This document shows positions 23,990 to 44,897 of a stretch of 53,714 nt of DNA, piece after piece. A program made the translations under genes and the position numbers. The notes under the pieces are model-generated. The model made no database searches. It was not told where the DNA came from and saw nothing but the letters and a program-made list of their open reading frames with translations. The DNA is taken from sequence record DRR378314_1164. The stretch is one strand, 5' to 3'. Every line of letters starts with the position of its first letter. The stretch's first letter is position 1.

Positions 23990-24012
23990 CTGTAAATTCA
24001 CGTAAATGCCAT

Positions 24013-24041: not shown

Positions 24042-24116
24042 GAAGGTTGCTGTTAACTGGAATGTTTTCAGTCACAGCGATACATGTATCTATATCTCTG
24101 GAGTGAGGTGAATATT

Positions 24117-24440
24117 ATGAAAACTTTAGCATTAGCAGTTGTTGCTGCGTTTGGTTTAGCGACCGCGCCGGCAATGGCACAAGATGAAAGCACTGGTACA
24201 GCTGGAACATCAGCTTCAAGTGCAGGTATTGGTGGCTTGTCTACGCAGGCATTAGTGTTTGCTGGTGTTGCAGCCGCTGCAACGGTAGCCGCTGTTTCTG
24301 ACAGCTCATCTAGTCCAATTATTGATGGTGGTTGTACTGGTCCAGATTGTGATGAAGATCCCGATACTACTGTCACTGTAACTGTGACTGGTACAGGTAC
24401 CAATACTTATACAACTACAACGACTGTTCCTGTTCAGTAA
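24117..24440 (+). CDS. Small secreted Thr/Ser/Ala-rich protein, GfcA/YjbE-like
   Basis: Signal peptide ending AMA-Q, Ala/Val stretch, Thr-rich tail; first gene before gfcB-like; ATG 24117 after GAGGTG. Confidence 0.7.
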   Translation: MKTLALAVVAAFGLATAPAMAQDESTGTAGTSASSAGIGGLSTQALVFAGVAAAATVAAVSDSSSSPIIDGGCTGPDCDEDPDTTVTVTVTGTGTNTYTTTTTVPVQ

Positions 24441-24500
24441 CAGTGGTTTAGAGTCGGTTAGTGAAGCGCTTCGCTTGCCTGACTTACAAAAGTTTGTGAT

Positions 24501-24530
24501 AAAATACCGCCGTTCGGGCGGTATTTTTTT
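24501..24530 (+). terminator. Rho-independent terminator / attenuator between gfcA-like and gfcB-like
   Basis: aaaataccgcc-gttcg-ggcggtattttttt: perfect stem followed by a T7 run. Confidence 0.85.
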
Positions 24531-24577
24531 GTTCGTTATATGGTGCTGTTTACTTTGTTGGAATAAGAGATTCATTC

Positions 24578-25261
24578 ATGTTAATTCGCTATTGCTTACT
24601 CACTTTTTTGGCCGTTATTGTTTCTGGCTGCACCGCAGTTACCGACGAAGTTCGCGAAACAGTTGAGTATGCCTTTAAAGAGCAGCAGGACGCCGAACTC
24701 ACTCCTGAAGAAATAAAGGACTTTCCCTATACGGCCTTGTATGCTCAATGGGAAGGGTTTCCGCGTACACTTATTGTGCTGGGCTTTGTTGATAAACCCG
24801 GTGACAGGCATTTTGTAACTGCTGAAAAGGAAACGCTGGTAATACGCAACGGCCGCGTTATAAGAACTCAGGACTTAACCCAGAACTTACTGGCCACGTC
24901 CAATTTAAGTCAGGACCCCTTGCCGTGCATTATTACTCAACCTGCGAAATGCAAAATGAGTTGGCAGCGTGACTACGATTATCAATTAGAAACGCAAACC
25001 CTAAGTCGCACGGTAAATTCTCAGTTTTATGTACAGGAAGAGCAAACTCTGGATCTGCCCTTTGGTGAGGTTAATGTCACTTTAATAGAAGAAAAAGGGC
25101 GCTTTGAATTAACCGGAGAAACCTTTACTAACCGTTTCTGGGTTGAAAGCGACGGGCATGTGGTGAAAAGCGAGCAGCAGTTGTTTCCTGGTGAGGTGAC
25201 GTTGACATTAACTCAAGTGACCTGGATAGGTCGTGATTATTCTAATAAAGTAGCGAAATGA
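24578..25261 (+). CDS. gfcB: Group 4 capsule lipoprotein GfcB/YjbF
   Basis: Lipobox VSGC, FPYTALY, LIVLGF, NGRVIRT, NRFWV..DGHVVKSEQ. Confidence 0.8.
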   Translation: MLIRYCLLTFLAVIVSGCTAVTDEVRETVEYAFKEQQDAELTPEEIKDFPYTALYAQWEGFPRTLIVLGFVDKPGDRHFVTAEKETLVIRNGRVIRTQDLTQNLLATSNLSQDPLPCIITQPAKCKMSWQRDYDYQLETQTLSRTVNSQFYVQEEQTLDLPFGEVNVTLIEEKGRFELTGETFTNRFWVESDGHVVKSEQQLFPGEVTLTLTQVTWIGRDYSNKVAK

Positions 25262-28137: not shown

Positions 28138-28161
28138 AACAGTCTGAAAAGGATGTAGACA

Positions 28162-30087
28162 TTGAAACTTTTTAAGCTACTGATGCAACTGCCTCGTAAC
28201 GTAAAGCGGGGTATTGGTCTGGTTATTGATATAGGGTCAATAACTGTGGCTATGGTTTTGGCGTACTTATTAAGCTTTGATGCCATTGTGCCGTTGCGTT
28301 GGTCGCAATGGATTATTCTGGGCGGAGTAGTTTTAGGCATTACGCTACTTGCTTTTATTCGTTTTGGTTTGTACCGGGCGGTAGTGCGCTATGTTGGCTT
28401 TAAAGTGCTGAGTTTGGTGTTTTTTAGCGTTATATTCAGCGGTGTGCTGTTGGTCGCCGGGGCATGGGTAATGGGTATTTCTTTGCCTGTGTCCGCTGTT
28501 GTGAATTATGTGCTTATTGCATTTTTGCTGACAGGCGGCAGCCGTCTTGTGGTTCGCGAAGGGTATCAGCGGGTAATGAGTCGGCAAAAAGACCGGGTGA
28601 TTATTTATGGTGCAGGCTCGGCCGGACGGCAATTAGCGCAGGCGATATCTAACGGTGATGAGTTTCACCCGGTGTTGTTTGTTGATGATGACAGTGGCTT
28701 ACAGAACACCTCGGTTCTGGGGTTAAAAGTTATTTCGCCAGAGAATATCGAGCGCGCTATTCGCGACTTGGATATTCAACGTATTTTGTTGGCTTTGCCC
28801 AGCACGCTGCGCTCGCGGCGCCGTCAAATACTGGATGCTTTGGAAGCCCTGCCGGTAAAAGTACAAACCGTACCCGGTATGGCCGATATGGTGAATGGCG
28901 ACTTGTCGATTGACCAGCTACAGGACGTGCGGGTAGAGGATTTACTGGGCCGGGACCCAGTGACTCCGGCGCCGCAGCTAATGGAAAAGCATATTACCGG
29001 GCAAACTGTACTGGTAACGGGAGCGGGTGGCTCTATTGGTTCTGAATTGTGCCGTCAAATACTGAAGCAGCGGCCTAAGGCGTTGGTGCTGTATGAGTTG
29101 TCGGAGTTTGCTTTATACGCCATAGAGCGCGAGTTAACGCAAATTTGTCAGCAGCAGGGCATTGGTGCAGAAATTATTCCTGTTATAGGTACGGTTCAGC
29201 GACGCAACCGTATTGAAACTGTGTTGAGAACGTTTGCTGTGGATACCGTATACCATGCGGCGGCTTATAAGCATGTGCCTTTAGTTGAATACAATATGGT
29301 TGAAGGCGTGCGCAATAACGTATTTGGTACCTGGCATACCGGCGAGGCGGCCATTTCGGCTGGTGTTAAGCAGTTTGTGTTAATTTCAACCGACAAAGCC
29401 GTGCGGCCTACCAATGTTATGGGTACTACCAAACGCTTGTCGGAGCTTGTATTGCAGGGGCTAGCGCAACGCCAGCGCGGAACGCGTTTTTCAATGGTGC
29501 GTTTTGGCAATGTACTGGGGTCTTCCGGTTCGGTTGTGCCTTTGTTTAAAGAGCAGATTGAACACGGCGGGCCGGTAACCGTAACGCACCCCGATATTAC
29601 CCGCTTTTTTATGACCATACCCGAGGCTGCGCAGTTAGTGATTCAGGCTGGTACCATGGGGCATTCCGGCTCGGTGTTTGTACTGGACATGGGCGACTCG
29701 GTTAAAATTGTCGATTTAGCCCGCAAGATGATTCGTTTGTCGGGGCTGGAAGAGAAAACCGAGAAGAATCCGCACGGTGACATTGCTATAGAGTTTAGTG
29801 GCTTGCGGCCGGGCGAGAAGCTATACGAAGAGCTGTTAATTGGTGACAATGTAGAAGCCAGTGACCACCCGCGTATACTGCGTGCCAATGAGCAGTCGCT
29901 AAACTGGGACGAAATGGAGAAATTGCTGGGACTGCTGGATGATGCCTGCCAGCGTTTCGCCATTGACGAACTGCGCCAGTTATTGCTGGACGCTCCAACC
30001 GGCTACGCCCCGCTGGACGACCGTATTTGTGATGTTATTTGGAATAAGCACCGTACGTGTAGCGATGACGAAAGCGACGTCGCGTGA
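28162..30087 (+). CDS. wbpM: Membrane-bound UDP-GlcNAc 4,6-dehydratase (WbpM/PglF/CapD family)
   Basis: Four N-terminal TMs, YGAGSAG, EDLLGR, GAGGSIGSEL, HAAAYKHVP, STDKAVRPTNVMG, RFGNVLGSSGSV, GLRPGEKLYEEL. Confidence 0.92.
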   Translation: MKLFKLLMQLPRNVKRGIGLVIDIGSITVAMVLAYLLSFDAIVPLRWSQWIILGGVVLGITLLAFIRFGLYRAVVRYVGFKVLSLVFFSVIFSGVLLVAGAWVMGISLPVSAVVNYVLIAFLLTGGSRLVVREGYQRVMSRQKDRVIIYGAGSAGRQLAQAISNGDEFHPVLFVDDDSGLQNTSVLGLKVISPENIERAIRDLDIQRILLALPSTLRSRRRQILDALEALPVKVQTVPGMADMVNGDLSIDQLQDVRVEDLLGRDPVTPAPQLMEKHITGQTVLVTGAGGSIGSELCRQILKQRPKALVLYELSEFALYAIERELTQICQQQGIGAEIIPVIGTVQRRNRIETVLRTFAVDTVYHAAAYKHVPLVEYNMVEGVRNNVFGTWHTGEAAISAGVKQFVLISTDKAVRPTNVMGTTKRLSELVLQGLAQRQRGTRFSMVRFGNVLGSSGSVVPLFKEQIEHGGPVTVTHPDITRFFMTIPEAAQLVIQAGTMGHSGSVFVLDMGDSVKIVDLARKMIRLSGLEEKTEKNPHGDIAIEFSGLRPGEKLYEELLIGDNVEASDHPRILRANEQSLNWDEMEKLLGLLDDACQRFAIDELRQLLLDAPTGYAPLDDRICDVIWNKHRTCSDDESDVA

Positions 30088-31700: not shown

Positions 31701-33902
31701 ATGCCAATTAAACAATTTAAACTAACGGCATTATCAGCTGCTGTTGTCATGGGGTTAGCAGCCTGTGGTGGCAGTGATGATAATTATGCACCAACAGTTT
31801 CTTCAGTCGAAGTTGCTGCCGAGGGAACTCAATGGGAACCTATGACAGGTCAGGTGACGGCTACCGACCCTAACGGTAGCGATGTTACTTATTCTGCATC
31901 GGTTGTGGCTCCTGAAGAGGGAACTGCGCCAGGCACTGTGGAAATTAATAGTGATGGGGAGTTCACCTATATTCCGTTGCGTGCTGAAACCGCGACAATT
32001 GAAATTACGGTTAGTGACGGCGAATTAAGCACCACTGAAACAGTGACGGTTGAAAGTTCAACTATTAAAAGTGACCCGTTGGCATACCAACAGTGGCATT
32101 TAAATAACACCGGCCAGAAAACTTACACTCAAACACAAGCGGCGCTGGACTTCTTAGTGAACAACTATGGTTGGACAGAAGAAGATGCGCGAGCTCAGTT
32201 TTTTGATGAAAGCATTTATGTTCCCGGCGAAGACATGAACGTTATTGAAGCTTATGCGCAAGGTGCTTTTGGGCAGGGAATGATTGTTGGTGTAGCCGAT
32301 TCCGGGCTGGAAATTCAGCACCCGGATTTACGTGATAATATTGCACCAAATATGTCATTAAACTTTGATCCCAATGCTACCAATAAAATGGATCCTACTA
32401 ACACGCTAAGCAACACCGGTGATCACGGTACCTCTGTTGCGGGCTTGATTGCAGCTGTTGCTGGAAATGGACTGGGTGGACGCGGCGTAGCTCCTCAGGC
32501 TCAAGTGTTTGGAGCTAACTACTTAGGTGGTAATGTTGCTCAGAACGAGCTGAACTCAGCTTTGAGCCACGGTTTACCGGGCAGTGGTGTTTCTGAAAGT
32601 GACCCGCTTATTGCCTACAATCGTAGCTACGGTATTTCTTATCCTGCAGCGCTTTATACCTACCCAACCGACGAAGCTTTTGAAAAGTACGTTGCAACGG
32701 CCTTGCGTAACGGCCTTGGCGCAATCAATGTTAAGTCGGCAGGTAACTCGTTTAATGGCGGGCAAACCGGACTTTGTGACATTAACGGTGCTGTAGCGTC
32801 AGGCTTAACTTGCTTGAACGGTAACATGGATCCGTCAAACGCAAACTTCTACACAACAACCATTGCGGCGGTTAACTCTGACGGCGGACATACCAGCTAC
32901 TCGACTGCGGGCTCTAATATTTTTGTTTCCGCACCGGCAGGTGAGTACGGTGAGTTTGCTCCGGCCATGGTGACTACGGATCAGTCCACTTGTTTGCAAG
33001 GTTATAGCAGTTTCCCTACTCAGGACGCTATTGACGCTCAAGCTGGAGCGCCAGGTTACTTTGAAGCATTCAGAAACTTTAATGCACCGGGTCACGAAGA
33101 AAACCCATCATGTAACTTTACCAGTACGTTTAACGGAACCTCTTCGGCGGCGCCAAATACGAGTGGTGTTGTTGCTTTGATTGGTTCAGCTAACCCAGCG
33201 TTGAGTGCTCGCGAAATTCGTCACATTATGGCTAACACGGCTGATCAGGTCGATGCTGAAGATGAAGGCGTAGTTTTAGAGGTTAACAGTGGCGAGTTTG
33301 TTGCTGACCCAGGCTGGATTGAGAACGATGCCGGTTATGCGTTTAACCTGAAATACGGCTTTGGTCGTGTGAATGCTGGCGCAGCGGTTGCAATGGCAAA
33401 AGAAATGGAAGCCGGTTCAATGGCTGAACTGATTGAAACTGACTGGATGAACGTTTCTCCTGAAACTGCCGTTGATGTTCCTGACAACAATGCTGAAGGC
33501 GCAAGCTACAGCTTTACTGTTGAAGACGACATGACACTGGAAGGTTTGCAATTCTCACTGACAGTAAGTAATGCGGACTTTAACGGTTCAGGCTGTTCTT
33601 TCTACAGCACGGCAGGTTCTGACTTAGCGGTTGAAGTAACGTCTCCTGCAGGTACTACAACTCAATTGTTATCAGGTCGCCAGGAAATTATTGTCGGTGC
33701 TGAAGGTCAATGTAGCCCGTACATTCTTGAAGACACTGTATTTTTGGCAAATGCCTTTTATGGCGAGAGCCTGGCTGGCGAATGGACGGTACGTTTAGTT
33801 GATACCAATGGCGATGATTTGAACCTTAGTGGTTTGCCAGTATCTAACAACACAGTACCTTCAGTTTTTGAAGCCGTTAGCGTTCGTGCGTTCGGTCATT
33901 AA
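31701..33902 (+). CDS. Lipoprotein S8 (kexin-like) serine protease with Ig/cadherin-like domain and P-domain
   Basis: Lipobox LAAC; catalytic D (VADSG), H (HGTSVAG), oxyanion N (KSAGN), S (NGTSSAAP); YGFGRVNA; P-domain GEWTVRLVD. Confidence 0.9.
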   Translation: MPIKQFKLTALSAAVVMGLAACGGSDDNYAPTVSSVEVAAEGTQWEPMTGQVTATDPNGSDVTYSASVVAPEEGTAPGTVEINSDGEFTYIPLRAETATIEITVSDGELSTTETVTVESSTIKSDPLAYQQWHLNNTGQKTYTQTQAALDFLVNNYGWTEEDARAQFFDESIYVPGEDMNVIEAYAQGAFGQGMIVGVADSGLEIQHPDLRDNIAPNMSLNFDPNATNKMDPTNTLSNTGDHGTSVAGLIAAVAGNGLGGRGVAPQAQVFGANYLGGNVAQNELNSALSHGLPGSGVSESDPLIAYNRSYGISYPAALYTYPTDEAFEKYVATALRNGLGAINVKSAGNSFNGGQTGLCDINGAVASGLTCLNGNMDPSNANFYTTTIAAVNSDGGHTSYSTAGSNIFVSAPAGEYGEFAPAMVTTDQSTCLQGYSSFPTQDAIDAQAGAPGYFEAFRNFNAPGHEENPSCNFTSTFNGTSSAAPNTSGVVALIGSANPALSAREIRHIMANTADQVDAEDEGVVLEVNSGEFVADPGWIENDAGYAFNLKYGFGRVNAGAAVAMAKEMEAGSMAELIETDWMNVSPETAVDVPDNNAEGASYSFTVEDDMTLEGLQFSLTVSNADFNGSGCSFYSTAGSDLAVEVTSPAGTTTQLLSGRQEIIVGAEGQCSPYILEDTVFLANAFYGESLAGEWTVRLVDTNGDDLNLSGLPVSNNTVPSVFEAVSVRAFGH

Positions 33903-33910
33903 TAGGAGCA

Positions 33911-34405
33911 ATGAATATGAGTTTAATGAAAGCACTATTAGCGGTGGCCGTAAGTGGCGCAGTTGCGGTATCGGCCACGGCGCAGGAAGTTCCTGCACCA
34001 ATGAAAAAACAACAGCAACCGGCTGTTAAGCAGTTACCAGAAATGGATGCGAAACGTGACTATCAACAGTATAGCTTCACTAAGCTGCCAGAGTCTGCCG
34101 AACAGCAGGCAGAAGACAGCGATGTGCTGCTGGCCGGTACAGAGATGGTTAACCGTATTACTGGTGAAGAAGCCTATGTATCTGGTGTAGTGACTGTTTT
34201 AACCAAAGGCGTTGATGTGGATGCTTTAGCTTCTCAGTTTGGTTTGACGGTTGAGCGCGTTTACTCTCGCTTAAACCTGGCTATGCTGAAAGCGCCTGAA
34301 GGCACTAACATGCTTAAGTTGCGTGACGAAATGCACGGCGTTAGTGGTGTTAATAGTATTAAAGTTGAGATTGTCGAAAACCTTCGTAAGCCTCATAAAC
34401 TTTAA
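33911..34405 (+). CDS. Secreted protein, probable external chaperone of the S8 protease (Aeromonas ASP ORF2-like)
   Basis: Signal peptide, 8 nt after the protease stop, N..TG....VSG.V.V and LASQFGL segments; same arrangement as Aeromonas asp-orf2. Confidence 0.6.
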   Translation: MNMSLMKALLAVAVSGAVAVSATAQEVPAPMKKQQQPAVKQLPEMDAKRDYQQYSFTKLPESAEQQAEDSDVLLAGTEMVNRITGEEAYVSGVVTVLTKGVDVDALASQFGLTVERVYSRLNLAMLKAPEGTNMLKLRDEMHGVSGVNSIKVEIVENLRKPHKL

Positions 34406-34423: not shown

Positions 34424-34463
34424 AAAAACCGCATTTGGGCATTCGCCTGAATGCGGTTTTTTT
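34424..34463. terminator. Bidirectional Rho-independent terminator
   Basis: aaaaaccgcatttgggc-attc-gcctgaatgcggttttttt between convergent operons. Confidence 0.85.
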
Positions 34464-34518: not shown

Positions 34519-35868
34519 CTACAAAAGCCCCTCAAGCGTGCGAATGTTGTCCCTTAGTTCGGTACGCCCCGGATTGTTGTTGTATATCCCCTGCAACAGC
34601 TCTAGTGCTTTACGGTAGTCTTTTTGGTCGATAGCAATTTGAGCAAGCCCCATATTGGCTTGCTCTTCTACTTCTTTTATAGAGCTTGCGCGTTGGTACA
34701 GGAGTTGCGCCTGAGTTAAATGCCCGCGTTCATAGTTGAGGTTTGCCAACTGAATGAGTCCGGTGCCGTTGGCCGGGTCAACCTGTAGTAATTGTTTAAA
34801 GGTTTTTTCTGCTTGGTCAATATTACCACGACGTTGATGATATTCTGCGTTAAGGAATAAGACTCCGGCATGCTGGGTTGGCGACAAATTAGACTGATTA
34901 ATGTTGCCATAAAGCTTTTCAAACAACTGCCATTGCTCGTTCGCGAGTAGCTTCTGCGCCACTTGCTGTAATGTGGCAAGGTAGCGACGAATAGTCGCGT
35001 CGTCACTAAAGTTTTCCCTGTTCATTGTCTGCAAGATCTCTGCTGCGCGGTGAAGGCTACCCGATTGGGCATGTAACGAGGCGAGTTGCAGTTGCCCTTT
35101 TAGATTATTGCTTTGTAGGTGTACAGCAGACTCTAGACTGCTGATTGCTTTTTGATAATGCTTTTGTTCCATTGCCAGTTGGGCTCGCTGTAACCATAGT
35201 ACTGCGTCATGAGGCTGTTGCTGCAACAGCTCTTCTACTAACGCATTGGCGCGTGATGTCGCTCCGGATTGCACCAGTGCGTACAGTAAGCCCCGTGACC
35301 ACTGTCTATTGTCAGGTTCCAGCATCAGGGCTTTTTCATAAGCGCTAATGGCTGACATTGGCAGTGCTGTTTGCAAATTGATATAACCCAGCTGCCCGTA
35401 CAGCTGAGCTGATATAGCACCAGTTTGTAGGGTTTTCACAAGATAAGGCCGGGCTTTTTTAAGCTCCTGCTGGCTTAAATAGACCGTGGCTAAGTTCTGT
35501 AGCGCAGCCAAATTCTCCGGTTCTAAGGTCAACGAGGCTTTTAAGTCACTTTCCGCTTCCGAAAAGTTTTTTAGAGCCAGGTTAACCTGCCCTCGTAGAC
35601 CTAACAGTAAAGCACTCTCGGCAATAGTTTCACGGTCAAGTTGATGCAATGCCTGCTGGTACTGCTGTTGCTCAATAACCGGCTGTAATTCAGTTAGTAG
35701 TTCACGTTCTTGTGTGGTTAAGGTTTTGCTTTCGCCATCCAACCTTTGCTGCAGAGTCAGTGCCCACTGTGGCGCGTCAATTATCGGGGCTAACTGTTCG
35801 GCCTTTACACCATTGTTAACACTTAGTAGAGCCACAAGCAGGAACGAGGCAAAGTAATGATATTTCAT
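34519..35868 (-). CDS. Periplasmic TPR protein (TtpD-like) of the TonB operon
   Basis: Signal peptide, repeated A...Y/L..AL.LEP.N TPR pattern; last gene after tonB. Confidence 0.8.
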   Translation of the reverse strand: MKYHYFASFLLVALLSVNNGVKAEQLAPIIDAPQWALTLQQRLDGESKTLTTQERELLTELQPVIEQQQYQQALHQLDRETIAESALLLGLRGQVNLALKNFSEAESDLKASLTLEPENLAALQNLATVYLSQQELKKARPYLVKTLQTGAISAQLYGQLGYINLQTALPMSAISAYEKALMLEPDNRQWSRGLLYALVQSGATSRANALVEELLQQQPHDAVLWLQRAQLAMEQKHYQKAISSLESAVHLQSNNLKGQLQLASLHAQSGSLHRAAEILQTMNRENFSDDATIRRYLATLQQVAQKLLANEQWQLFEKLYGNINQSNLSPTQHAGVLFLNAEYHQRRGNIDQAEKTFKQLLQVDPANGTGLIQLANLNYERGHLTQAQLLYQRASSIKEVEEQANMGLAQIAIDQKDYRKALELLQGIYNNNPGRTELRDNIRTLEGLL

Positions 35869-35869
35869 A

Positions 35870-36511
35870 TTAAATTTCTACCTCCAGCGGCCAAATGAAG
35901 CGCGCTTTTACTGTTTTGCCATTTTTTTTCGGGGGTGTGAATTTCGCTTTTTTCACCATTTGTTCTATTGAAAAGCGCAGCTTTGGATCAGGGCTTTCAA
36001 CTATGCGTAGTAAGGTCACCTTACCCTGACTGTTAATGGAGACTTCCAGGCGCAGCAATATAGTGTTGCCCAGCCGTCTTTTGAGGTCAGCTGGTACGTC
36101 TAATGAAACTGTGCTTAGCAGTTGTGGAACGCCATCCAGTTCGCTCAGGCTAAAACCTTGCCAGTTGATTTCCGGTAACTTAATGGGTTGCCTGCTAATA
36201 TCTGGGTTGAGGTTATCCGGTGGAGTGAAATTGGCTAATGGCGTGTTCACCTGCGGAGTATATTCCAACGCCGGGCCGCTACCTGAAACATCCAGTTTCA
36301 GTTTTGACTGCTGTTCAGCCTGTTGCTGCTGAGCCGGTGGTGGCGGTGGCTCTATGATGGCGCTGTCAATGGTGCGTACTTCATAGCGTGGTGGGGAATC
36401 GCTATTAAGTGTGACTGCCACGTCCAATAATATGACCACAGCAGAAGTTAGTAAGGCAGCAAGCAGCAGTGCTATGAATTTGTGTTGATGTGTTAAAAAA
36501 AATTGTCGCAT
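35870..36511 (-). CDS. tonB: TonB energy transducer
   Basis: N-terminal TM, EPPPPP, C-terminal I..QGKV....IVES and AKFTPPKKNGKTV; ATG 36511 directly after the exbD stop. Confidence 0.85.
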   Translation of the reverse strand: MRQFFLTHQHKFIALLLAALLTSAVVILLDVAVTLNSDSPPRYEVRTIDSAIIEPPPPPAQQQQAEQQSKLKLDVSGSGPALEYTPQVNTPLANFTPPDNLNPDISRQPIKLPEINWQGFSLSELDGVPQLLSTVSLDVPADLKRRLGNTILLRLEVSINSQGKVTLLRIVESPDPKLRFSIEQMVKKAKFTPPKKNGKTVKARFIWPLEVEI

Positions 36512-36512
36512 A

Positions 36513-36923
36513 TTAATTGGCTGCGGTAGCAATACTGACACTGTCAGCGCCTGCTAATTTGACCTGATCGATAACATTAACCAGCAATTCAGCGGGCACG
36601 GTTTTGTCTGTTTGCAGAACCACCGGGCGGGACTGGTCACGTAGCAGTTGTTCAATGGTTGCGCGTACGCCGCCGACCCCAATGTTGTTGCCGTCGTAGA
36701 CGATTTGACCACTGCGAGTAATGGCAATAAGAATAGAGGTACGCTCCAGTTCTTTTGCGGTGACCGATTCGGGCTTGTCAACATTGACGCCTGACTCGCG
36801 CACAAACACGGTAGAGACAATAAAGAAGATCAATAAAATAAAGACCACATCTAGCAGTGGAGACAGGTCGATACCGTTAATGGGCTCTTCGTTTTGTGTT
36901 CTAAGCTTGGTTAACAAACTCAC
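36513..36923 (-). CDS. exbD: ExbD/TolR
   Basis: IDLSPLLDVVFILLIFFIV, DK.VPAELLVNVID. Confidence 0.93.
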   Translation of the reverse strand: MSLLTKLRTQNEEPINGIDLSPLLDVVFILLIFFIVSTVFVRESGVNVDKPESVTAKELERTSILIAITRSGQIVYDGNNIGVGGVRATIEQLLRDQSRPVVLQTDKTVPAELLVNVIDQVKLAGADSVSIATAAN

Positions 36924-37317
36924 CTAAGGACTCCATAGTTTTACGCTCTATTTTTGCTTTTGTTGACCAAAGCAATAGCCAGCCGGGAATAGCCAGAGCA
37001 ATGCCTAATAGCGTGGTCATGAGTGCCTGGCTGATACCATTGGTTACTGTGTAAGCCGTGGATGAAGAGTGCACTAAGGCAGAGAAACTGGTCTGCATAC
37101 CCATTATAGTGCCCAGTAAACCGATAAGTGGCAGTGCTGTGATAACAATAGCGGGCACAGTAGTGATTTTTGGCCGTTGCGTAAGTTGTTTAGATGGCGC
37201 TGAGAGACGGATATAAATTAGCCGCGCGTAACTGCTGAAGGCCAGTCCCAGCAGTAACCAGGATAACGGGTGGGCCAGTAGGTGTGAGTAAAATGAACCT
37301 GGCATGAGCTTAGGCAC
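36901..37317 (-). CDS. exbB: Short ExbB (MotA/TolQ/ExbB proton channel)
   Basis: ALPLIGLLGTIMGM, GISQALMTTLLGIALAIPG. Confidence 0.85.
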   Translation of the reverse strand: MPKLMPGSFYSHLLAHPLSWLLLGLAFSSYARLIYIRLSAPSKQLTQRPKITTVPAIVITALPLIGLLGTIMGMQTSFSALVHSSSTAYTVTNGISQALMTTLLGIALAIPGWLLLWSTKAKIERKTMESLGEFVNQA

Positions 37318-38614
37318 CTGCCTGTTGTTTTTTGTGTTGCTCCAGCGCCTCTACCGCGTATTGCTGAAGCTTTTCACTGTCGTTTTTCGCTTTGCGGGTG
37401 AGTACCGCACTTAATATAAGCGATGGAATAGCGACCACTAAACCAAGCTCGGTTGTGATAAGCGCCTGACCTATACCTCCTGAAACAACTTGTGGCTCGC
37501 TGGTGCCGTAAGTGGCCATCATATTAAAGGTCGTGATCATTCCGGACACCGTGCCTAATAGCCCAAGTAACGGAGCAATGGTGGCGATGACCGTAACGAC
37601 CGTTAACCCTTTATGAAGCCTAAAGCGCATCCACTGTATTTGCGCAACCAGTTTGTCTTCTTTTGCATCGAGCTCTAAATGACTTTCTATGATGCGCTCA
37701 AGTTGCTGTTGCATAGGATGCCTAACACGATTATCTATGGCAGGTACGCGATACAGCTGAACGGCTTTAGTAACAGCCATAATGAGCGAAACAAGTGCTG
37801 CTATGACAATGGGAATGATCCATAGACCCCCGTCGTTTAAATATTGCCACGGAGTTTTATCCGCCGACTGATTTTGCTGTGCTTTGCCTAAGGTCGGGTC
37901 AAAGGTAATTTGAGCGGAGCCTGAGTGACGGAGTTTCTGCAACTCTTTTGATTCACTCTCGCTGTAAGCGTACTCCAGTCCAACACCGTTTTCAGACGCA
38001 GAGCCCAGACCGGTAACAGTTTTGTCTGTTTTATCTGCGGCAATTAAACGAACAGGGCCTAACGCCAGAACCGGGCGCTCAAGCTGGCGGCCGTCGGGCA
38101 TTATCGCCTTGCTTTCATGCCAATTAGGTTCAGCTGCTTCAAGCAGTTTATTGGCTTGCTGTTGTAGTAAGTTAAGCTTGTCGCTCTGCGAAAGGTGACT
38201 AATTTCCTGATAACTTAATCCGCTTTGTTGCAGCAACCGAGTAATGGCATTTTGTTGGTGATCCTGCTGTTGCTGCCACAGCTCAAGACGCTGTTCTAGT
38301 GTTTGCAGGGACAATGTTTGTTCATCTTTAGAGCGCCTGGCGGCCGCTGTTTTTGAGCGTAAGTGAGAGACTTGTTGTTCAAGCTCGGTAATTTGAGTTG
38401 CCAGTTTTGAGCGTTTTTCTGTGATACGTTCTTGTGTCTGTTCAAGCCGCTGTTTTGCCTGTTCGATTTTTTTCAGTAAATACTCTTCGTTCAATTCTCC
38501 GCTTTGGCTGGCCGAGGCTTGGGCACTGCTTAGTAATACCAAAGCCACTATAAATAAGCTGCTGATGGCGTTGAAAAGACACGCTGAATAAGAATGTTTT
38601 ACCACAGGCGTCAT
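37310..38614 (-). CDS. TtpC-like large ExbB-family protein with periplasmic coiled-coil domain
   Basis: Signal peptide, coiled coil, FDPT, C-terminal APLLGLLGTVSGMI and GQALITTELGL. Confidence 0.85.
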   Translation of the reverse strand: MTPVVKHSYSACLFNAISSLFIVALVLLSSAQASASQSGELNEEYLLKKIEQAKQRLEQTQERITEKRSKLATQITELEQQVSHLRSKTAAARRSKDEQTLSLQTLEQRLELWQQQQDHQQNAITRLLQQSGLSYQEISHLSQSDKLNLLQQQANKLLEAAEPNWHESKAIMPDGRQLERPVLALGPVRLIAADKTDKTVTGLGSASENGVGLEYAYSESESKELQKLRHSGSAQITFDPTLGKAQQNQSADKTPWQYLNDGGLWIIPIVIAALVSLIMAVTKAVQLYRVPAIDNRVRHPMQQQLERIIESHLELDAKEDKLVAQIQWMRFRLHKGLTVVTVIATIAPLLGLLGTVSGMITTFNMMATYGTSEPQVVSGGIGQALITTELGLVVAIPSLILSAVLTRKAKNDSEKLQQYAVEALEQHKKQQAGA

Positions 38615-39375
38615 TGTGAGCCTCCTTGAGCGGATAACTCAACTGGCAGAGAAATATACTGAGGCAGCGCCTGGTTATTCAGAATTTTAAGAGCTTGCCG
38701 CACGCTTCCCCCGTTCAGGTTAGGGTCCGCCTGCCATTGCCACTGACCGTTAACGACACGGCCGTAGCCAGCTGTTTGGTTATCCTTGCTGACAAACCAG
38801 GCGTAACTGAGCCCCAGGTACAGTTGATCGACCATTAGGGATTGTTGGTTTAGTTCAATAACTCCCTGGTGTTGGCCGACTCGTTGGTTAAATTGCTGCA
38901 GTTGTTCAATGCGTGATAGCACGTATTGGAGTTTTGCGGTGTTGGAGGTTATGTCGTTACCAGAGGTATTCGTGCCTTGTTCGTTAGCCGCTATTGCTGG
39001 CGCGACTCTCATTTGATGATGATTCAATTGCGCAGCTAAACGGTTGATAGTGGCTTCTGTCTGCTTCTGTTGTTGCTCTAGCTGGTTTTGCTGTTGCAGG
39101 AGTTGTGAGCGTTTTTCGTCAACCGAATTTTTGCGCGTTTTTGTTTGTTTAAGAAACTCTGATAATTGATTTATTTCGGCATTCAACAAGCGGATACGCT
39201 GCTCCAGCACTGGTCTGTCTGCTTGCCATCCTGCCTGCAGGGCACGAGCCTGGTCTTCTACGGCTAACCACTGTGCTGTCAGCTTATCGGTTGTCTCAAC
39301 CGTTTGCGCCTGGTTATTTGCGCTAAAAATGGCGGCGATGGAGAGCAGTATGACACTGATAAGTCTTAGCAGCAC
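38611..39375 (-). CDS. DUF3450-like (TtpB-like) periplasmic coiled-coil protein
   Basis: Signal peptide, Q-rich coiled coil, VDQLYLGL..AWF, C-terminal LPV; first gene of the TonB operon. Confidence 0.7.
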   Translation of the reverse strand: MLLRLISVILLSIAAIFSANNQAQTVETTDKLTAQWLAVEDQARALQAGWQADRPVLEQRIRLLNAEINQLSEFLKQTKTRKNSVDEKRSQLLQQQNQLEQQQKQTEATINRLAAQLNHHQMRVAPAIAANEQGTNTSGNDITSNTAKLQYVLSRIEQLQQFNQRVGQHQGVIELNQQSLMVDQLYLGLSYAWFVSKDNQTAGYGRVVNGQWQWQADPNLNGGSVRQALKILNNQALPQYISLPVELSAQGGSQ

Positions 39376-39434
39376 ATGAACACCTTTATCTACTGAGTTT
39401 ACTGGCGGGTAGTTTAAGGGGAATGAGAGTTTAT

Positions 39435-39457
39435 GTAAATGCGAATAATTAGCGTTT
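39435..39457. promoter_or_regulatory. Fur-box-like site 1
   Basis: gtaaatgcgaataattagc matches 13/19 of GATAATGATAATCATTATC, in the divergent tonB/receptor intergenic region. Confidence 0.65.
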
Positions 39458-39486
39458 ATTGACTGTTTAAGGTTTTCGTGGCAACC

Positions 39487-39505
39487 TTAAATGAGAATTA
39501 TTCCT
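39487..39505. promoter_or_regulatory. Fur-box-like site 2
   Basis: ttaaatgagaattattcct, AATGAGAATnATT core, 11/19 to the consensus. Confidence 0.55.
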
Positions 39506-39536
39506 AAAACGTTTTTTCAAGCCAGAGAGTTTCAAG

Positions 39537-41996
39537 ATGCAATTACCTATGTCTTTTTTGCGTAACCCGGTTGCTGCTGCGGTAAGCCTATCCATTTTCA
39601 CCACCTTGTCCTTTTCTACTTATGCGCAGGAAGACCCGGTACAAGAGTTAGCGACCACCAAGGTGGAAAGTGAAAATTCAGAGGTGGAAGTAAAAACTCT
39701 AGGGCCGCTCGATTTGCGGACTTCTACGCGTTCGGATTTAAGCGAGGCGTTATCTATAATTCCATCTTTACGCATTGATAATACGGCAAGCTCCAGTACG
39801 CGGCAGGGCGATATTAAGCCCGCGGAATTTTCAATTCGGGGCGCGGCACCGTATCAGAATAACATTCAACTGGATAACAGTAGCATAGACAGTCTGCTTG
39901 ACCCGGCTAAAGTATTACGCTCGGGAGAATCGCCTGGCTACTCTCAAGTGTCGGGACACTCTCAATCAATTTTCATTGACCCTGAGTTTTTGTCATCAAT
40001 TGAAGTGATTGACAGCAATGCTTCGGCAAAAGAAGGTGGTTTTACCGGTGGCGTGATAAAGGCAAAAACACGTGGGTATCAAGGGGAGAATAGGTTTTCG
40101 GTGAGTCATCGCATGACCAAAGACAGTTGGACCGAGTTTCATATTGATAAGGCGCAGCTGATCAATTTTGAGGAAGGTGCGGGGCAGCTTCCGACGGGGA
40201 CTCCTGGCAAGTTTCAGCCCAACTTTGATAAGTCGGAGACCTCGCTGTCAGGTACCTTTAGGGCTGGTGATATTGGTTTCTTTGTGGGATATAGCGAAAA
40301 GCGCTCGGAGATTACCCAAAAACGTACCGCGGAAAGGGCCTTTATTTCTGACTTAGACTACTTTTTAGAGACAGGCAACGCCTTTAAGCACGGAGATGAA
40401 GATAAACTCGATAGTGAATCGCGTTATTTTACAGTACGTGCTGACGCTTTGGATGTGCCTTACGATTTGTATGCGACTTTTTCTTTCAGTGACTTTTCTG
40501 AAGACAGTTTTTTAATTAATTATCTTAACTCGGATTTTTCCAGTGAGGTAACCGGGTACAATTTAAGTGTAAATTACGGCGATGATTTTGGTGCGACGCG
40601 AATGGATTCAACGGTGGCGTTGAATTTAAGTGATAACAGTCGGGATGCCCAGGTCAATACGCTTGATAACTTTAAAGGTAGGAGTCTCTTCGAGACGGCA
40701 ATTGTCGGCAGTTACGGTGATCTTGAAAATGAGCAGGAGCGCTTGTCGGCATCAGTCGATTTTGATACTGAGCTAAATGAAAACCAGAATTTTCTCTATG
40801 GACTAGAGATTGACCATGTGCGCTTGCACCAGAATAGGCCGGAAGATTTCGTTAGTACCGAGTACTACCCGGACGACTCGAGTTTAACAACCGGAGTCCC
40901 TTACGCTGAGCATCATGTTTATCGTGAAGCTGTCTACGGAGCTGGTGATATTGGCTTTAATGAAACTAATTTTAGTGCATACGGTGAAATAAAAGGTGAA
41001 AGCGAATCGTTGTTTTATTCGGGCGGGCTGCGGGCCAGTCGTGATGCCTGGCTTGGAAACACGAATTTGGCGCCGCGATTGAGCGGGGGAATGTACCTTG
41101 CTGACGACGAAAGCCTTTCTGTAGAAGTTGGGGCTAACCGATATTATGGCAAATCGTTTTTATCGTACCGCTTAAGAGATGAAGAAAAGAAATTTGTGAC
41201 CGTACGCGAGCGCGAAGAAACCTATAATCCGGATTCACCTTTTAATGAATTTTCAGGGGAGGCCAAGTGGCTGCCGAGTGACCTGAACACGCCTTACGAT
41301 GATGAATACAGTATTGGGCTTAGCAGTTTGCAATTTTCCGGAATAGCAAAAGTTGAGTTTGTTGTTCGTAAGGGGCGAGATCAAATTCGCACAGACTATA
41401 ATGGCGAAGATGATACGTACCAGTACGTTAATAGCGGCGAAAGCGATACCAAGCAAATAGACGTGTCCTGGCGGTCGCCGACTTATAACTGGCTAGCCTC
41501 TGACTGGCGAGTGAATGCTGGCGTTTCATGGATGGATACTGAAACCGATGCACAATATCTTGACGGAGGTTATGGCAAAGCCACGAATCCGGATGAAGAG
41601 ATCATCTTTGACGGTAAACGTATGATGAGAGTAGACCTTCCTGCGGATGATTACGCCAGCCCGATTTCGGCCAATATTGATGTGATTATGCAGGCCTTTG
41701 ATAACCGCCTGTTGATGACGAACTCGTTTGGGTACACCAACGGTTATCAGTATTTAGGCCGTGCTGGCACTGATGAAGCGACCGGACTTAAAAATTATGA
41801 GACGGTTGATCAGGGGACGACATTTAACTGGAACCTTGGGGTTGAGTATCAGCTTTTTGCAGGCAGTAACTCGCCGTATGTTAGCCTGGATGTTATTAAC
41901 CTGACGGACAAGTCCAATGTACTTCGTTATGAAACCGGCACCCAATTATTCAGCCTGGGACGCCAGTTCTGGGTTGAAGTGGGTTATCGGTTTTAA
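39537..41996 (+). CDS. TonB-dependent outer membrane receptor
   Basis: Signal peptide, plug motifs SIRG and GGFTGGVI, NLAPRL, C-terminal NLTD...GRQFWVEVGYRF. Confidence 0.92.
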   Translation: MQLPMSFLRNPVAAAVSLSIFTTLSFSTYAQEDPVQELATTKVESENSEVEVKTLGPLDLRTSTRSDLSEALSIIPSLRIDNTASSSTRQGDIKPAEFSIRGAAPYQNNIQLDNSSIDSLLDPAKVLRSGESPGYSQVSGHSQSIFIDPEFLSSIEVIDSNASAKEGGFTGGVIKAKTRGYQGENRFSVSHRMTKDSWTEFHIDKAQLINFEEGAGQLPTGTPGKFQPNFDKSETSLSGTFRAGDIGFFVGYSEKRSEITQKRTAERAFISDLDYFLETGNAFKHGDEDKLDSESRYFTVRADALDVPYDLYATFSFSDFSEDSFLINYLNSDFSSEVTGYNLSVNYGDDFGATRMDSTVALNLSDNSRDAQVNTLDNFKGRSLFETAIVGSYGDLENEQERLSASVDFDTELNENQNFLYGLEIDHVRLHQNRPEDFVSTEYYPDDSSLTTGVPYAEHHVYREAVYGAGDIGFNETNFSAYGEIKGESESLFYSGGLRASRDAWLGNTNLAPRLSGGMYLADDESLSVEVGANRYYGKSFLSYRLRDEEKKFVTVREREETYNPDSPFNEFSGEAKWLPSDLNTPYDDEYSIGLSSLQFSGIAKVEFVVRKGRDQIRTDYNGEDDTYQYVNSGESDTKQIDVSWRSPTYNWLASDWRVNAGVSWMDTETDAQYLDGGYGKATNPDEEIIFDGKRMMRVDLPADDYASPISANIDVIMQAFDNRLLMTNSFGYTNGYQYLGRAGTDEATGLKNYETVDQGTTFNWNLGVEYQLFAGSNSPYVSLDVINLTDKSNVLRYETGTQLFSLGRQFWVEVGYRF

Positions 41997-42001
41997 GCGC
42001 T

Positions 42002-43123
42002 ATGCAATTAGGACGTTTTTTACTAGTTGCTATAGGTAGTTGTCTGCTTATGTTCGGTTCAGTCTGTGAGGCAGAGCCGCAGGACTCTTTAGTTGATGTT
42101 TATCGAGGTCCTCAGCAGCAATGGCCCGCAGCAACTATTGATGACGGGGTAGATTTTAAGCCGTTAGCACCACTTGAGAATAAACCGCCTTTTCCTGAGG
42201 ATAATCCTTATTCGAAAGAAAAATGGGAGCTGGGTAAGCAGCTGTTTTTTGAACGTCGATTATCTAAGTCAAGGCAAGTGGCCTGCGCCAGTTGTCATGA
42301 TCCTGATTTAGGCTGGGCGGATGGACGGCGCAAAGCTATTGGGCATAATCGTATACAACATGATTTAAATTCTCCCTCTATTGTAAACAGTGCCTGGATT
42401 GAGGAGGTGTTTTGGGACGGGCGCGCAGACTCTCTGGAAGAACAAGTACTTGGAAGTTGGCAAAACCCAATAGAAATGGCGGCGAATTTGCCAGACGCTG
42501 TGGCTCGTATTCGGAGTATTGAAGGCTATTCACCTCTTTTTGAACAAGCCTTTGGTTCCAGCGAGGTGTCCGCGATGCGGATCAGCCAGGCAATTGCAAC
42601 CTTCATGCGGAAGATAACGCTGACAAACACACGCTTTGACAAGTTTATGCGAGGTGAGCGTGACGTTTTAACTGAGAACGAGATTAAAGGACTGCATTTG
42701 TTCCGTACAAAAGCTCGTTGCGCCAACTGCCATAACGGTGCCTTGTTGAGCGATGGTGAGTATCATCATTTGGGGTCGTCTTTTCATAACGTTGGAGAGT
42801 TTCAGGGGCGTTATCGCGTAACTGGCAAAGCTGAGGATGTGGGAGCATTCAGAACGCCTGGGTTGCGTGGTATTGGGGAAACGGCTCCTTATCAGCATAA
42901 TGGCTTTGCTAAAAATTTGGATATATTACTGAACCTATACAATATGGGCTGGTGGCAAAATGCTGAATTGGCGGAAAAAGGTAACGATATCCCTACTGCT
43001 CAGTTATCGAGCCACATTCAGGAGCTGAAGTTAAACAAGGAGGAGTTAATTCACCTTAAGGCTTTTTTGGGCACTCTCGATGGAGACATGCCCTGGTATG
43101 AAATGCCAGAAGAACTTGAATAG
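42002..43123 (+). CDS. Periplasmic di-heme cytochrome c, bCcP/MauG superfamily, Tyr-ligated (MauG/MbnH-like) type
   Basis: Signal peptide; CASCH (aa 95-99) and CANCH (aa 240-244); FWDGRA; FRTPGLR; TAPYQHNG with Tyr313 at His+14. Confidence 0.88.
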   Translation: MQLGRFLLVAIGSCLLMFGSVCEAEPQDSLVDVYRGPQQQWPAATIDDGVDFKPLAPLENKPPFPEDNPYSKEKWELGKQLFFERRLSKSRQVACASCHDPDLGWADGRRKAIGHNRIQHDLNSPSIVNSAWIEEVFWDGRADSLEEQVLGSWQNPIEMAANLPDAVARIRSIEGYSPLFEQAFGSSEVSAMRISQAIATFMRKITLTNTRFDKFMRGERDVLTENEIKGLHLFRTKARCANCHNGALLSDGEYHHLGSSFHNVGEFQGRYRVTGKAEDVGAFRTPGLRGIGETAPYQHNGFAKNLDILLNLYNMGWWQNAELAEKGNDIPTAQLSSHIQELKLNKEELIHLKAFLGTLDGDMPWYEMPEELE

Positions 43124-43139
43124 CTGTGTTTTTGCCCAT

Positions 43140-43195
43140 GTAATCTAGCGTTTACGTCAGGTTCTATATTCCATCTAGCATGAATGTCAGGCTAC
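43140..43195. repeat. Degenerate GTAG REP doublet (56 bp)
   Basis: gtaatctagcgtttacgtcagg + ttctatattcca + tctagcatgaatgtcaggctac. Confidence 0.8.
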
Positions 43196-43300: not shown

Positions 43301-43645
43301 ATGCCAAAATCTATAGTACGTACCTACTCACAATACACCAAAGAAGCCCTGACTCTACTGTCTGGGCTTATTCGTGCTGCGCGCATTGAGCGCAAGCTTA
43401 GTACTCAGGAAGTCGCAGAGCGCGCAGGTATTTCAAGAAGTATGCTTCAGCGTATTGAAAAGGCTGATCCTAAGTGTGAAATAGGTGCCGTATTCGAGGT
43501 GGCCAGTATTGTCGGTGTGCCGCTATTCAACGCAGAACTGTCTTCTCCAAAATTAGCGAATAACATTAAGCGTACCGAAGAGAAACTTGCTTTGCTGCCG
43601 CAAAGAGCGCGTAAACCGCAAAAGGCCATTGATGATGACTTCTGA
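43301..43645 (+). CDS. XRE-family HTH regulator, HipB-like antitoxin
   Basis: IRAARIERKLSTQEVAERAGISRSMLQRIEK Cro/C1 HTH; overlaps the downstream kinase gene. Confidence 0.85.
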   Translation: MPKSIVRTYSQYTKEALTLLSGLIRAARIERKLSTQEVAERAGISRSMLQRIEKADPKCEIGAVFEVASIVGVPLFNAELSSPKLANNIKRTEEKLALLPQRARKPQKAIDDDF

Positions 43646-44897
43646 CTCTATTTATAAAGAAGCCTATGTCTGGATCTGGCTGCCGGGAGAAACAACTCCG
43701 GTAGTGGCTGGAAAACTCGAAGCCGATGGCGAGAACCTGCTTTTTAACTACGGTAAGAATTATTTAGCGCGTGTTAATGAAGAGCCTACCGCGATTCCAA
43801 TCTACGAGCCTGAGCTACCATTAAAGCAGGGAGTAATACCCAATTTACAAGGCTTAAGCATGCCTGGGTGTATTCGCGATGCGGCACCGGATGCATGGGG
43901 ACGTCGAGTTGTTATTAATAAGCTGCAGGGTAATAGGGGAGACAATGTCGATACGGCGGTGCTTGATGAACTGACTTACTTGTTGGAGTCTGGCTCAGAC
44001 AGAATTGGGGCTCTCGACTTTCAGTTATCACCAACTGAATATGTGCCTCGCTCAGCAAGAAACGCCACGATGGAAGAGTTAATAGAGTCGGCTGAGCGTG
44101 TTGAAAAAGGTATTCCGCTAACGCCGGAGTTAGATCAGGCTCTTTATCATTGTAGTTCAATTGGAGGGGCTCGTCCGAAAGCACTTATTGAACAAGATGG
44201 TATAAAGTACATTGCAAAATTTTCAGCTTCTAATGATCTTTATAGCGTTGTAAAAGCTGAGTTTATTGCTATGCGTTTAGCTTCGCTGGCTGGGTTAAAT
44301 GTGGCTCCGGTACAAATGGCTAAGGCGGCGGGTAAAGATGTTATTCTAATTGAACGTTTTGACCGTAAGCAGAATAAAAGTGGCTGGATGCGTAAGCCAA
44401 TGGTATCTGCTTTAACGCTCTTTGAGCTTGACGACATGATGGCGCGTTACGCGAGTTACGAAACCCTCGCTGAAATTATTCGGCGTCGTTTCAGCAAGCC
44501 ACAGGAGACGCTTAAAGAACTGTTTTCCCGCTTAGTATTCAATATTTTATGCGGTAACACGGATGATCACGCAAGAAACCATGCGGCTTTTTGGGATGGC
44601 AATAGCTTAAATCTTACCCCTGCTTATGATATTTGCCCACAGGGGCGTACGAGAAATGAGCAGGGGCAGGCAATGCTTATAGTCGGTAACAATAATGCCA
44701 GTCAAATGAGTAGTTGTTTGAAAGCTGCCCCCAACTTTTTGTTGAAACAGGACGAAGCTCTGGCTATTTTTGAGAATCAAAAGTCAGTTATAGAGCAAAA
44801 TTGGCAGAATGTGTGTGATGAGGCAGAATTGAGCGAAGTTGACCGGAAGCTATTCTGGGGGCGCCAATTTCTCAACCCATTTTCATTACAGACGTGA
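43632..44897 (+). CDS. hipA: HipA-family serine/threonine kinase toxin
   Basis: HipA N-terminal region (DAAPDAWGR, DRIGAL), SSIGGARPK, IAKF, IERFDR, NTDDHARN, LTPAYD; ATG 43632 or 43635 overlaps the HTH gene. Confidence 0.88.
   Translation: MMTSDSIYKEAYVWIWLPGETTPVVAGKLEADGENLLFNYGKNYLARVNEEPTAIPIYEPELPLKQGVIPNLQGLSMPGCIRDAAPDAWGRRVVINKLQGNRGDNVDTAVLDELTYLLESGSDRIGALDFQLSPTEYVPRSARNATMEELIESAERVEKGIPLTPELDQALYHCSSIGGARPKALIEQDGIKYIAKFSASNDLYSVVKAEFIAMRLASLAGLNVAPVQMAKAAGKDVILIERFDRKQNKSGWMRKPMVSALTLFELDDMMARYASYETLAEIIRRRFSKPQETLKELFSRLVFNILCGNTDDHARNHAAFWDGNSLNLTPAYDICPQGRTRNEQGQAMLIVGNNNASQMSSCLKAAPNFLLKQDEALAIFENQKSVIEQNWQNVCDEAELSEVDRKLFWGRQFLNPFSLQT

Follow-up and report, generated by a model that had tools for sequence, protein, structure and literature searches.

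A MauG-like di-heme enzyme encoded beside a FusA/YddB-type TonB-dependent transporter: a candidate iron-regulated import module in which redox chemistry may take the place of proteolysis

What does a di-heme enzyme of the cytochrome c peroxidase/MauG family do next to a TonB-dependent transporter (TBDT), when no gene for a protein partner accompanies the two? The question is raised by the eight-gene unit found at positions 34519-43123 of sequence record DRR378314_1164, the analysed stretch of which (53,714 nt, hereafter the window) was studied as a whole. The unit is formed by two divergent transcription units: on the plus strand, the gene of the TBDT (39537-41996, 819 aa) is separated by only 5 nt, from its stop codon to the next start codon, from that of the periplasmic di-heme enzyme (42002-43123, 373 aa), and both diverge from a six-gene TonB operon on the minus strand across a 161-nt promoter spacer (39376-39536). 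This gene content, with its coordinates, had been described in a first-pass annotation of the same DNA and was found to be correct. The explanation that appears best to us, which is a real possibility although it falls short of being probable, is that of an iron-regulated, Fus-like import module, in which the di-heme enzyme, with a Tyr residue at the position of the axial heme ligand, would process the imported cargo by redox chemistry, replacing proteolysis.

The di-heme protein contains CxxCH motifs at residues 95 and 240, Trp138 in the FWDGR motif, His299 in PYQHNG and, 14 residues further on, Tyr313. Residues 279-315 align without gaps to residues 260-296 of MauG (HMMER), with Tyr313 on MauG Tyr294 and His299 on MauG residue 280, and a full-length alignment to MbnH (structure 6e1c) also brings Tyr on Tyr. 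Tyr313 is shared by all of 115 aligned homologues (42-97% identity), so that none has the Met that classical bacterial cytochrome c peroxidases (bCCPs) have 14 residues past the conserved His, and which occupies the same column in three Met-type paralogues from other genomes. The nearby Met315, two residues after Tyr313, is kept in 40/115 sequences. The peroxide-site residues Gln148, Glu158 and Met159 are conserved in 114-115 of the 115 homologues and the inter-heme Trp138 in 112. Thus, the residue check, the alignment with MauG and MbnH and the comparison with the Met-type paralogues bear out the initial proposals that Tyr313 lies exactly 14 residues after the His of the PYxHxG motif, that the ligand position of the second heme is predicted to hold Tyr, as in the MauG/MbnH column, rather than the Met of Met-type bCCP, and that the inter-heme Trp is retained. 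From these comparisons, the electron-transfer heme is expected to have a His/Tyr ligation of the type found in MauG, MbnH and BthA.

Membership of the CCP_MauG superfamily is clear from the score with PF03150 (174.1 bits, with a gathering cut-off of 25.6) and from the two CxxCH motifs, and the Tyr falls in the same column as that of all 11 members identified with the MbnH model TIGR04039. However, the score with this model (191.6 bits) is below its cut-off of 362.85, as is that with the MauG model TIGR03791 (203.6 bits, equivalog cut-off 443.85). The AlphaFold model of the enzyme (pLDDT, the predicted local distance difference test score, 93.2) matches the fold of bCCP, MbnH and MauG. A maximum likelihood tree of 68 rows was rooted on the three Met-type bCCP paralogues as the outgroup; it has no verified MauG row, because none of 401 Pseudomonadota genomes scanned with TIGR03791 gave a match above the cut-off. 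All Tyr-type rows group together (Shimodaira-Hasegawa-like approximate likelihood ratio test, SH-aLRT, 100), and the window enzyme belongs to a clade of 30 rows (support 100), apart from the 11 verified MbnH rows, which form a clade of their own (support 100). The window clade is marked by the motif YNxGWWQN directly after the ligand Tyr (YNMGWWQN in the window enzyme), which is present in 74/115 homologues. Every non-Met family member sampled has Tyr at the Tyr313 column and, being common among the sampled non-classical members, this residue is not a rarity. As a separate observation, the Met-type bCCP paralogue of Marinobacter oulmenensis (locus L021, contig 3 of genome G001) is found at the C-terminus of a frame of at least 784 aa, with heme motifs at 509 and 655, and may be a fusion with an additional N-terminal domain.

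MauG and MbnH would lead one to look for a partner protein. None was found: a tblastn search of the window for MbnP-like sequences returned nothing below E = 3.7, no methylamine dehydrogenase or MbnP domain was detected in the eight unit genes or in 12 flanking genes, and the MbnP family model TIGR04052 found no match in the five carrier genomes of the TBDT-enzyme pair. The same model identified MbnP beside MbnH in a control locus, and with tblastn it was found as a neighbour of MbnH in 10 of the 11 loci that carry this enzyme. The absence of methylamine dehydrogenase- or MbnP-like genes, stated at the outset for this stretch, was thus reproduced by both the tblastn search of the window and the domain scan of the unit and its flanks. 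The same 20 genes also lack an M16 protease domain of the FusC/PqqL type, a point in which the unit differs from a protease-associated import system, where an M16 protease is encoded with the TBDT.

The transporter itself suggests where a partner might be sought. In a comparison with all PDB sequences, the window TBDT matches only FusA (3.1e-46) and entry 6ofr (3.5e-40), which is E. coli YddB as judged from identity over residues 29-790, in agreement with the title of the entry. A profile of 44 TBDT orthologues finds YddB (2.7e-81) and FusA (4e-78) among the PDB sequences and nothing else, and the pairwise alignment with YddB extends from residue 67 to the end (25% identity, E 1e-46). Foldseek, with the AlphaFold model (pLDDT 77.8), ranks FusA first (4.7e-56; template modelling score, TM, 0.73), followed by YddB (6.3e-52, TM 0.72), while the next protein, PfeA, is at 8e-27, so that every other TBDT trails FusA and YddB by about 25 orders of magnitude. 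Pfam recognizes the plug domain only and NCBIfam gives no match. On the combined weight of sequence comparison and predicted fold, the protein is assigned to the FusA/YddB family, which the first-pass annotation had not seen. An identity as PqqU (YncD) was considered and rejected: the BLASTP match is limited to the plug region (E 7e-5), in the fold search it comes at ranks 10 and 18, a long way after FusA and YddB, and for the PqqU signature Tyr99/Arg304/Arg365 two MAFFT alignments disagreed on the columns. When the TBDT plug (residues 31-195; 44 rows in the alignment) was co-folded with residues 27-373 of the enzyme (114 rows), the score was 0.00, which speaks neither for nor against an interaction.

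FusA is described as importing intact ferredoxin, which is cleaved afterwards by FusC, and, in the account given there, it is the sole family member shown to import a protein and with a known cargo (PMC6793856). Because this studied member of the family imports a whole protein, the imported cargo becomes, by analogy, a concrete candidate for the absent protein partner of the di-heme enzyme. The association of such transporters with peroxidase-family genes is itself already published, as a two-sentence remark without analysis of the enzyme (Grinter et al. 2019, PLoS Genet, PMC6793856), of which the first-pass annotation was not aware. According to that work, 12 of the 24 sequence clusters have M16 proteases of the FusC type adjacent to the FusA homologues, FusA homologues without FusC often adjoin cytochrome c peroxidase-family genes, and clusters from marine Marinobacter, Marinomonas and Pseudoalteromonas are named as carriers (PMC6793856). 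No further study of the TBDT/di-heme cassette was found in the open-access literature searched. To the published remark, the present analysis adds the Tyr at the MauG-type position, the YNxGWWQN clade, the Fur-like sites and the FecI/FecR genes, the linkage with a TonB operon and the strength of the linkage between the two genes.

How strong the latter is was determined from both sides. The search that started from the enzyme yielded 13 genome loci in Marinobacter, Halopseudomonas, Pseudomonas abyssi, Thiopseudomonas, Salinisphaera and Alloalcanivorax, and a FusA-like TBDT adjoins the enzyme in all of them (13/13): in nine, an orthologous TBDT (45-52% identity) lies directly upstream on the same strand, and in the other four the adjacent TBDT is a distant FusA-like one (24-37%). 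The search that started from the TBDT found four metagenome loci, two of which (L049 and L051) extend past the end of the transporter gene, and both of these carry the enzyme directly downstream (63% and 70% identity). The conserved linkage of receptor and di-heme enzyme across genomes, which had been named as the check that the initial proposal should pass, is therefore found in every locus where it could be read. Enzymes of the sister clade, which lack the WW motif, also abut FusA/YddB-like TBDTs (L017 and L060), and no such transporter is present in the 1.5-kb flanks of 25 loci of MbnH or other Tyr-type enzymes. The TBDT family is small: a large protein collection yielded 46 orthologues with an identity of at least 41%, and many of these come from contigs equal in length to contigs that carry homologues of the enzyme. 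Among 401 Gammaproteobacteria genomes, five were matched by the window TBDT (E <= 1e-20), with an orthologue in two already known carriers only; of the three distant matches, that in G706 has a di-heme neighbour, and those in G064 and G739 have none within about 7 kb.

A different layout was observed in two Marinobacter loci (L010, 367-11689, and L012) and one from Alloalcanivorax (L009), where a unit formed by the gene of an approximately 1050-aa lipoprotein and a di-heme gene is repeated twice in tandem, the first enzyme copy without and the second with the WW motif, and is followed by a distant FusA-like TBDT. The lipoprotein is characterized by a lipobox, by helical repeats and by a C-terminus that is acidic and rich in Asp, and no Pfam family scores above its gathering threshold; in locus L059 it is paired with a TBDT and there is no di-heme gene. 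By analogy, the pairing of TBDT and lipoprotein in L009-L012 and L059 resembles that of receptors that capture macromolecules, and it was counted as pointing to a large cargo.

The operon that diverges from the pair may provide the energy for import. Its genes, all on the minus strand and either abutting one another or sharing up to 31 nt, encode, in the order of transcription, a TtpB-like DUF3450 protein of 254 aa (38611-39375; PF11932, 91.7 bits), a TtpC-like protein of 434 aa with a long N-terminal part and a C-terminal MotA/ExbB channel (37310-38614; recognized from PF01618 at residues 303-417 and from the gene order), a short ExbB of 138 aa (36901-37317; PF01618, 59 bits), ExbD of 136 aa (36513-36923; PF02472, 97 bits), TonB of 223 aa (35870-36541; PF03544 TonB_C, 33 bits, cut-off 24.6) and a TtpD-like tetratricopeptide repeat (TPR) protein of 449 aa (34519-35868), which matches Pfam TPR families and occupies, after tonB, the position described for ttpD (PMC6957404). 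By its domains and by comparison with the published description, the order ttpB-ttpC-exbB-exbD-tonB-ttpD is that of a Vibrio TonB2-type system. The same divergent six-gene arrangement is present in the metagenome loci L049, L050 and L052 (38-68% identity). Locus L060 (6073-12222) of the 1.7-Mb genome G706 combines in one operon a di-heme enzyme with Tyr but no WW motif, a YddB-like TBDT, ExbB, two ExbD and TonB; the order of enzyme and transporter is reversed with respect to the window and the TonB set is classical rather than TonB2-type. Since the energiser is of the TonB2 type in the window and the three metagenome loci and a different set in L060, its linkage to the pair arose at least twice. 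By contrast, no TonB genes are found within 8 kb of enzyme and TBDT in any of the 13 genome loci. Thus, of the initial description of a dedicated TonB machine, the complete six-gene operon stands; its linkage to the pair applies to some lineages only, and the machine may or may not be dedicated to it.

Iron control of the unit is plausible from its regulatory sequences. As had been reported, the divergent spacer contains two palindromic Fur-like 7-1-7 sites (39440-39454 and 39492-39506), each with 10 of 14 matching positions; when the spacer was shuffled 5000 times by dinucleotides, two such sites arose in only 10 cases. Each is a moderate match, the best scoring 13/19 against the 19-mer consensus, a score of at least 13 being reached at 20 positions of the window. 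A third Fur-like site (11/14) lies at 39357-39371, inside the annotated 5' end of the DUF3450 reading frame, and a promoter-like site on the minus strand (39439-39411) abuts the first one. Of 13 upstream regions from related loci, 9 have a best 7-1-7 match of at least 11/14, compared with 54 of 2000 random windows, several of the loci being closely related and not independent. FecI-like and FecR-like genes precede the pair in L002, L005 and L006 (Halopseudomonas and P. abyssi), and many of the TBDT orthologues have an STN signalling domain. The core of the first Fur-like site, T-G/A-CGAAT-N-ATT, was also noticed upstream of the TBDT in L007 (position 5126), L008 (5120), L013 (5173) and L049 (2118), which hints at a conserved operator variant in Salinisphaera and a metagenome lineage. 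Two RNA libraries made from the same sample gave contigs covering 38500-43142 (about 92% identity); these contigs are no evidence of transcription, because they span both divergent operons, and may derive from DNA carry-over.

With these elements, the preferred explanation can be formulated as a sequence of steps. The FusA/YddB-family TBDT would take a large iron-bearing cargo, most likely a small metalloprotein, into the periplasm, with import energised by the divergent TtpB-TtpC-ExbB-ExbD-TonB-TtpD system; there, the di-heme enzyme would act at the place held in the studied systems by an M16 protease of the FusC/PqqL type. The chemistry would most likely be an H2O2-driven oxidation via high-valent hemes, because the predicted His/Tyr heme is of the kind present in MauG, MbnH and BthA and the residues of the peroxide site have been preserved. 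The oxidation may be relayed to the cargo by Trp317 and Trp318, an invariant pair that closely follows the Tyr ligand, and the iron cofactor would thereby be freed. In its most explicit form, which is considerably more speculative and which we regard as rather unlikely in all its details, marine bacteria would import a metalloprotein of other organisms, for example the ferredoxin of phytoplankton or a small cytochrome, and remove its iron by an H2O2-driven oxidation that acts at long range by way of the His/Tyr heme and Trp317/Trp318, a MauG-type enzyme having replaced the M16 protease.

Several points weigh against an import module that oxidizes its cargo. With respect to the transporter, 25% identity to YddB is uninformative on the substrate in a family as diverse as this one, no cargo of the family is reported outside Pectobacterium in the work cited above, and the unit has neither a protease nor an inner-membrane transporter of the FusD/YddA type. 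With respect to the enzyme, the heme ligation is read from the alignment alone and the models are without heme. Classical peroxidases are the best matches by both sequence and fold, and the N-terminal heme domain is closest to the Nitrosomonas peroxidase (5.7e-51), ahead of MbnH (4.6e-43) and MauG (about 1e-18). The distal His115 that is typical of the classical enzymes is kept in 102/115 homologues, so that an ordinary peroxidase turnover is possible, and BthA, also of the Tyr type, is reported to be a working peroxidase (PMC6405878). Furthermore, no Met-type bCCP was found in three of the five carrier genomes (G002, G003 and G004), where the Tyr-type enzyme may be the sole periplasmic peroxidase.

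Of the other explanations, the one that survives best, although it is doubtful, leaves the import module unchanged and replaces the cargo with a small iron chelate (siderophore, heme or other metal complex), the organic ligand of which would be oxidized by the enzyme in the periplasm with release of the metal, as periplasmic esterases do after some catecholate receptors. Siderophore and heme receptors are typically under FecI/FecR control and equipped with STN domains, a peroxidase has little chemical difficulty in oxidizing small aromatic ligands, and a conserved two-gene cassette would fit any scheme of import followed by processing. However, the sequence matches of the TBDT are FusA and YddB alone, without any receptor for siderophores or heme, by fold the siderophore receptors are far behind, and the Tyr-type enzymes whose substrates are described in the published accounts, MauG and MbnH, act on proteins.

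Somewhat less likely is the reductive release that the authors of the original remark proposed, instead of oxidation, for the peroxidase-linked FusA homologues without FusC: the di-heme protein would give electrons to the imported protein or complex, which would release the iron cofactor with no need for proteolysis (Grinter et al. 2019, PMC6793856). The near-invariance of Gln148 and Glu158, which a pure electron carrier would not need, and the His/Tyr ligation, which the available reports tie to high-valent states in MauG, MbnH and BthA, argue against it, as does the lack of a gene for a reductase or electron donor in the unit. The intact peroxide site and the link of the His/Tyr heme with high-valent chemistry are the reasons why oxidation is favoured here over the published reduction. 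It should be added that reduction of Fe(III) is a common route by which iron is freed, which was counted in favour of this alternative.

About equally improbable is that the enzyme carries out an ordinary removal of periplasmic peroxide, being co-expressed with an iron importer to guard against Fenton chemistry during iron entry. The points set out above on the closest matches, the distal His and peroxide site, the three carrier genomes without another Met-type gene of the family, and the peroxidase turnover of BthA despite its Tyr ligation all speak for it. On the other hand, a protective enzyme need not stay with one rare TBDT family across changes in gene order, transporter subfamily and host lineage, the clade has an invariant motif of its own after the ligand, YNxGWWQN (74/115), and a two-heme enzyme would presumably be costly under iron starvation. 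Were the enzyme a plain peroxidase, the conserved pairing with the TBDT would still call for an explanation. Finally, maturation of the cell's own TBDT or of another envelope protein by Trp/Tyr oxidation, as carried out by MauG on methylamine dehydrogenase and by MbnH on MbnP, is the least likely reading, although the Tyr-type enzymes with substrates described so far modify co-encoded proteins, the TBDT is the only protein always co-encoded and its family has invariant Trp657, Trp765 and Trp812, since the enzyme clade goes with at least three divergent TBDT subfamilies (24-32% identity), so that a conserved target site on the transporter is not evident, no MbnP-like WxW-type motif was seen in the TBDT, and TBDTs fold in the outer membrane with little exposure to the periplasm.

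The cassette joins two questions, namely the substrates of Tyr-type di-heme enzymes and the cargos of the FusA family, and for both it provides an enzyme clade and a transporter family that are well defined, carriers that can be cultured, such as Marinobacter oulmenensis DSM 22359, Halopseudomonas salina and Salinisphaera shabanensis, and a simple effect on growth as the phenotype to look for. If iron were indeed freed from an imported protein by oxidation, this would be a new chemical route of iron acquisition in marine bacteria and a new mode of iron piracy, with the first MauG-type enzyme acting on an imported rather than a co-encoded protein substrate.

The borders of the unit, 34519-43123, are as initially claimed because the flanking genes are unrelated to it: on the left a capsule/exopolysaccharide cluster, pgi and an S8 protease, on the right a helix-turn-helix (HTH)/HipA pair, an inositol monophosphatase, guaB and guaA. 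At the left border, in the gap that separates the convergent gene upstream from the last gene of the TonB operon, a hairpin with a 17-bp stem and T/A runs on both sides (34424-34461, without strand assignment) is likely a bidirectional terminator. The stretch 31701-34405, convergent on the end of the TonB operon, encodes an S8 subtilase with Big_9 and P-domains (31701-33902) followed by a 164-aa ORF_2_N protein; the protease was considered as a processing factor and rejected, having no counterpart in the related loci, and both genes are probably unrelated to the unit since they were not seen there. On the other side, the HTH gene (43301-43645) and the HipA gene (43587-44897) form a toxin-antitoxin pair. 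Contigs of related strains from three runs (X2, X21 and X22) track the window up to position 43142, 19 nt past the stop codon of the di-heme gene, and then differ from it; therefore, the HipA/HTH pair is probably a strain-specific insertion. Farther upstream, the region 21242-30087 contains export genes like those of group 4 capsules, among them those of a Wza-like protein of 915 aa that has four SLBB domains, of YjbF/GfcB, and of a 959-aa protein in which GfcC-like and YjbH domains are fused, followed by that of a Polysacc_synt_2 dehydratase.

[quoted passage not shown] With MauG it shares the Tyr column (Tyr313 on Tyr294) and the fold, but it is below the TIGR03791 cut-off, shows about 25% identity in the fold alignment and is not accompanied by mau genes. 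The surface Trp199 of MauG is, we assume, two residues before the second CxxCH; at the corresponding distance from its own second motif, counted by the motif and not by alignment to MauG, the window enzyme has Ala238 (108/115). It resembles the methanotroph MbnH, which is found with MbnP and MbnT, in the Tyr column, the inter-heme Trp, the full-length alignment to 6e1c and the presence of a TBDT nearby, but differs in its score with TIGR04039, its separate clade, the absence of MbnP from the window and the five carrier genomes, and regulatory signals that point to iron rather than copper. Burkholderia BthA is likewise a Tyr-ligated di-heme enzyme for which the description available gives no known protein partner or substrate (PMC6405878). 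Its match with the window enzyme is weak and local (3.6e-13 over residues 135-245), and BthA is reported to lack the inter-heme Trp, which the window enzyme keeps as Trp138.

The energiser is similar to Vibrio TonB2 in having the same six genes in the same order, with a TPR protein as the last one and a Fur or Fur-like site upstream, as described for the Vibrio operon, where TtpB2 is a DUF3450 protein of 255 aa, compared with 254 aa for the first gene of the window operon, and TtpD2 has TPR motifs (PMC6957404). The likeness is drawn from this published description, and the difference is that the window operon is divergently paired with one particular TBDT-enzyme cassette. With the clusters noted previously the unit shares a FusA/YddB-family TBDT that adjoins a cytochrome c peroxidase-family di-heme gene, with no M16 protease (PMC6793856). 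The closest parallels among the studied systems are Pectobacterium FusA-FusB-FusC-FusD and E. coli YddA-YddB-PqqL: sequence and fold place the transporters in one TBDT family, the gene of a periplasmic enzyme follows that of the transporter, as in the yddB-pqqL layout, and, in some lineages, a TonB-type energiser is nearby. However, in the window there is no ATP-binding cassette (ABC) transporter, a six-gene TonB2-type energiser corresponds to the single FusB, and the place of the M16 protease is taken by a di-heme redox enzyme.

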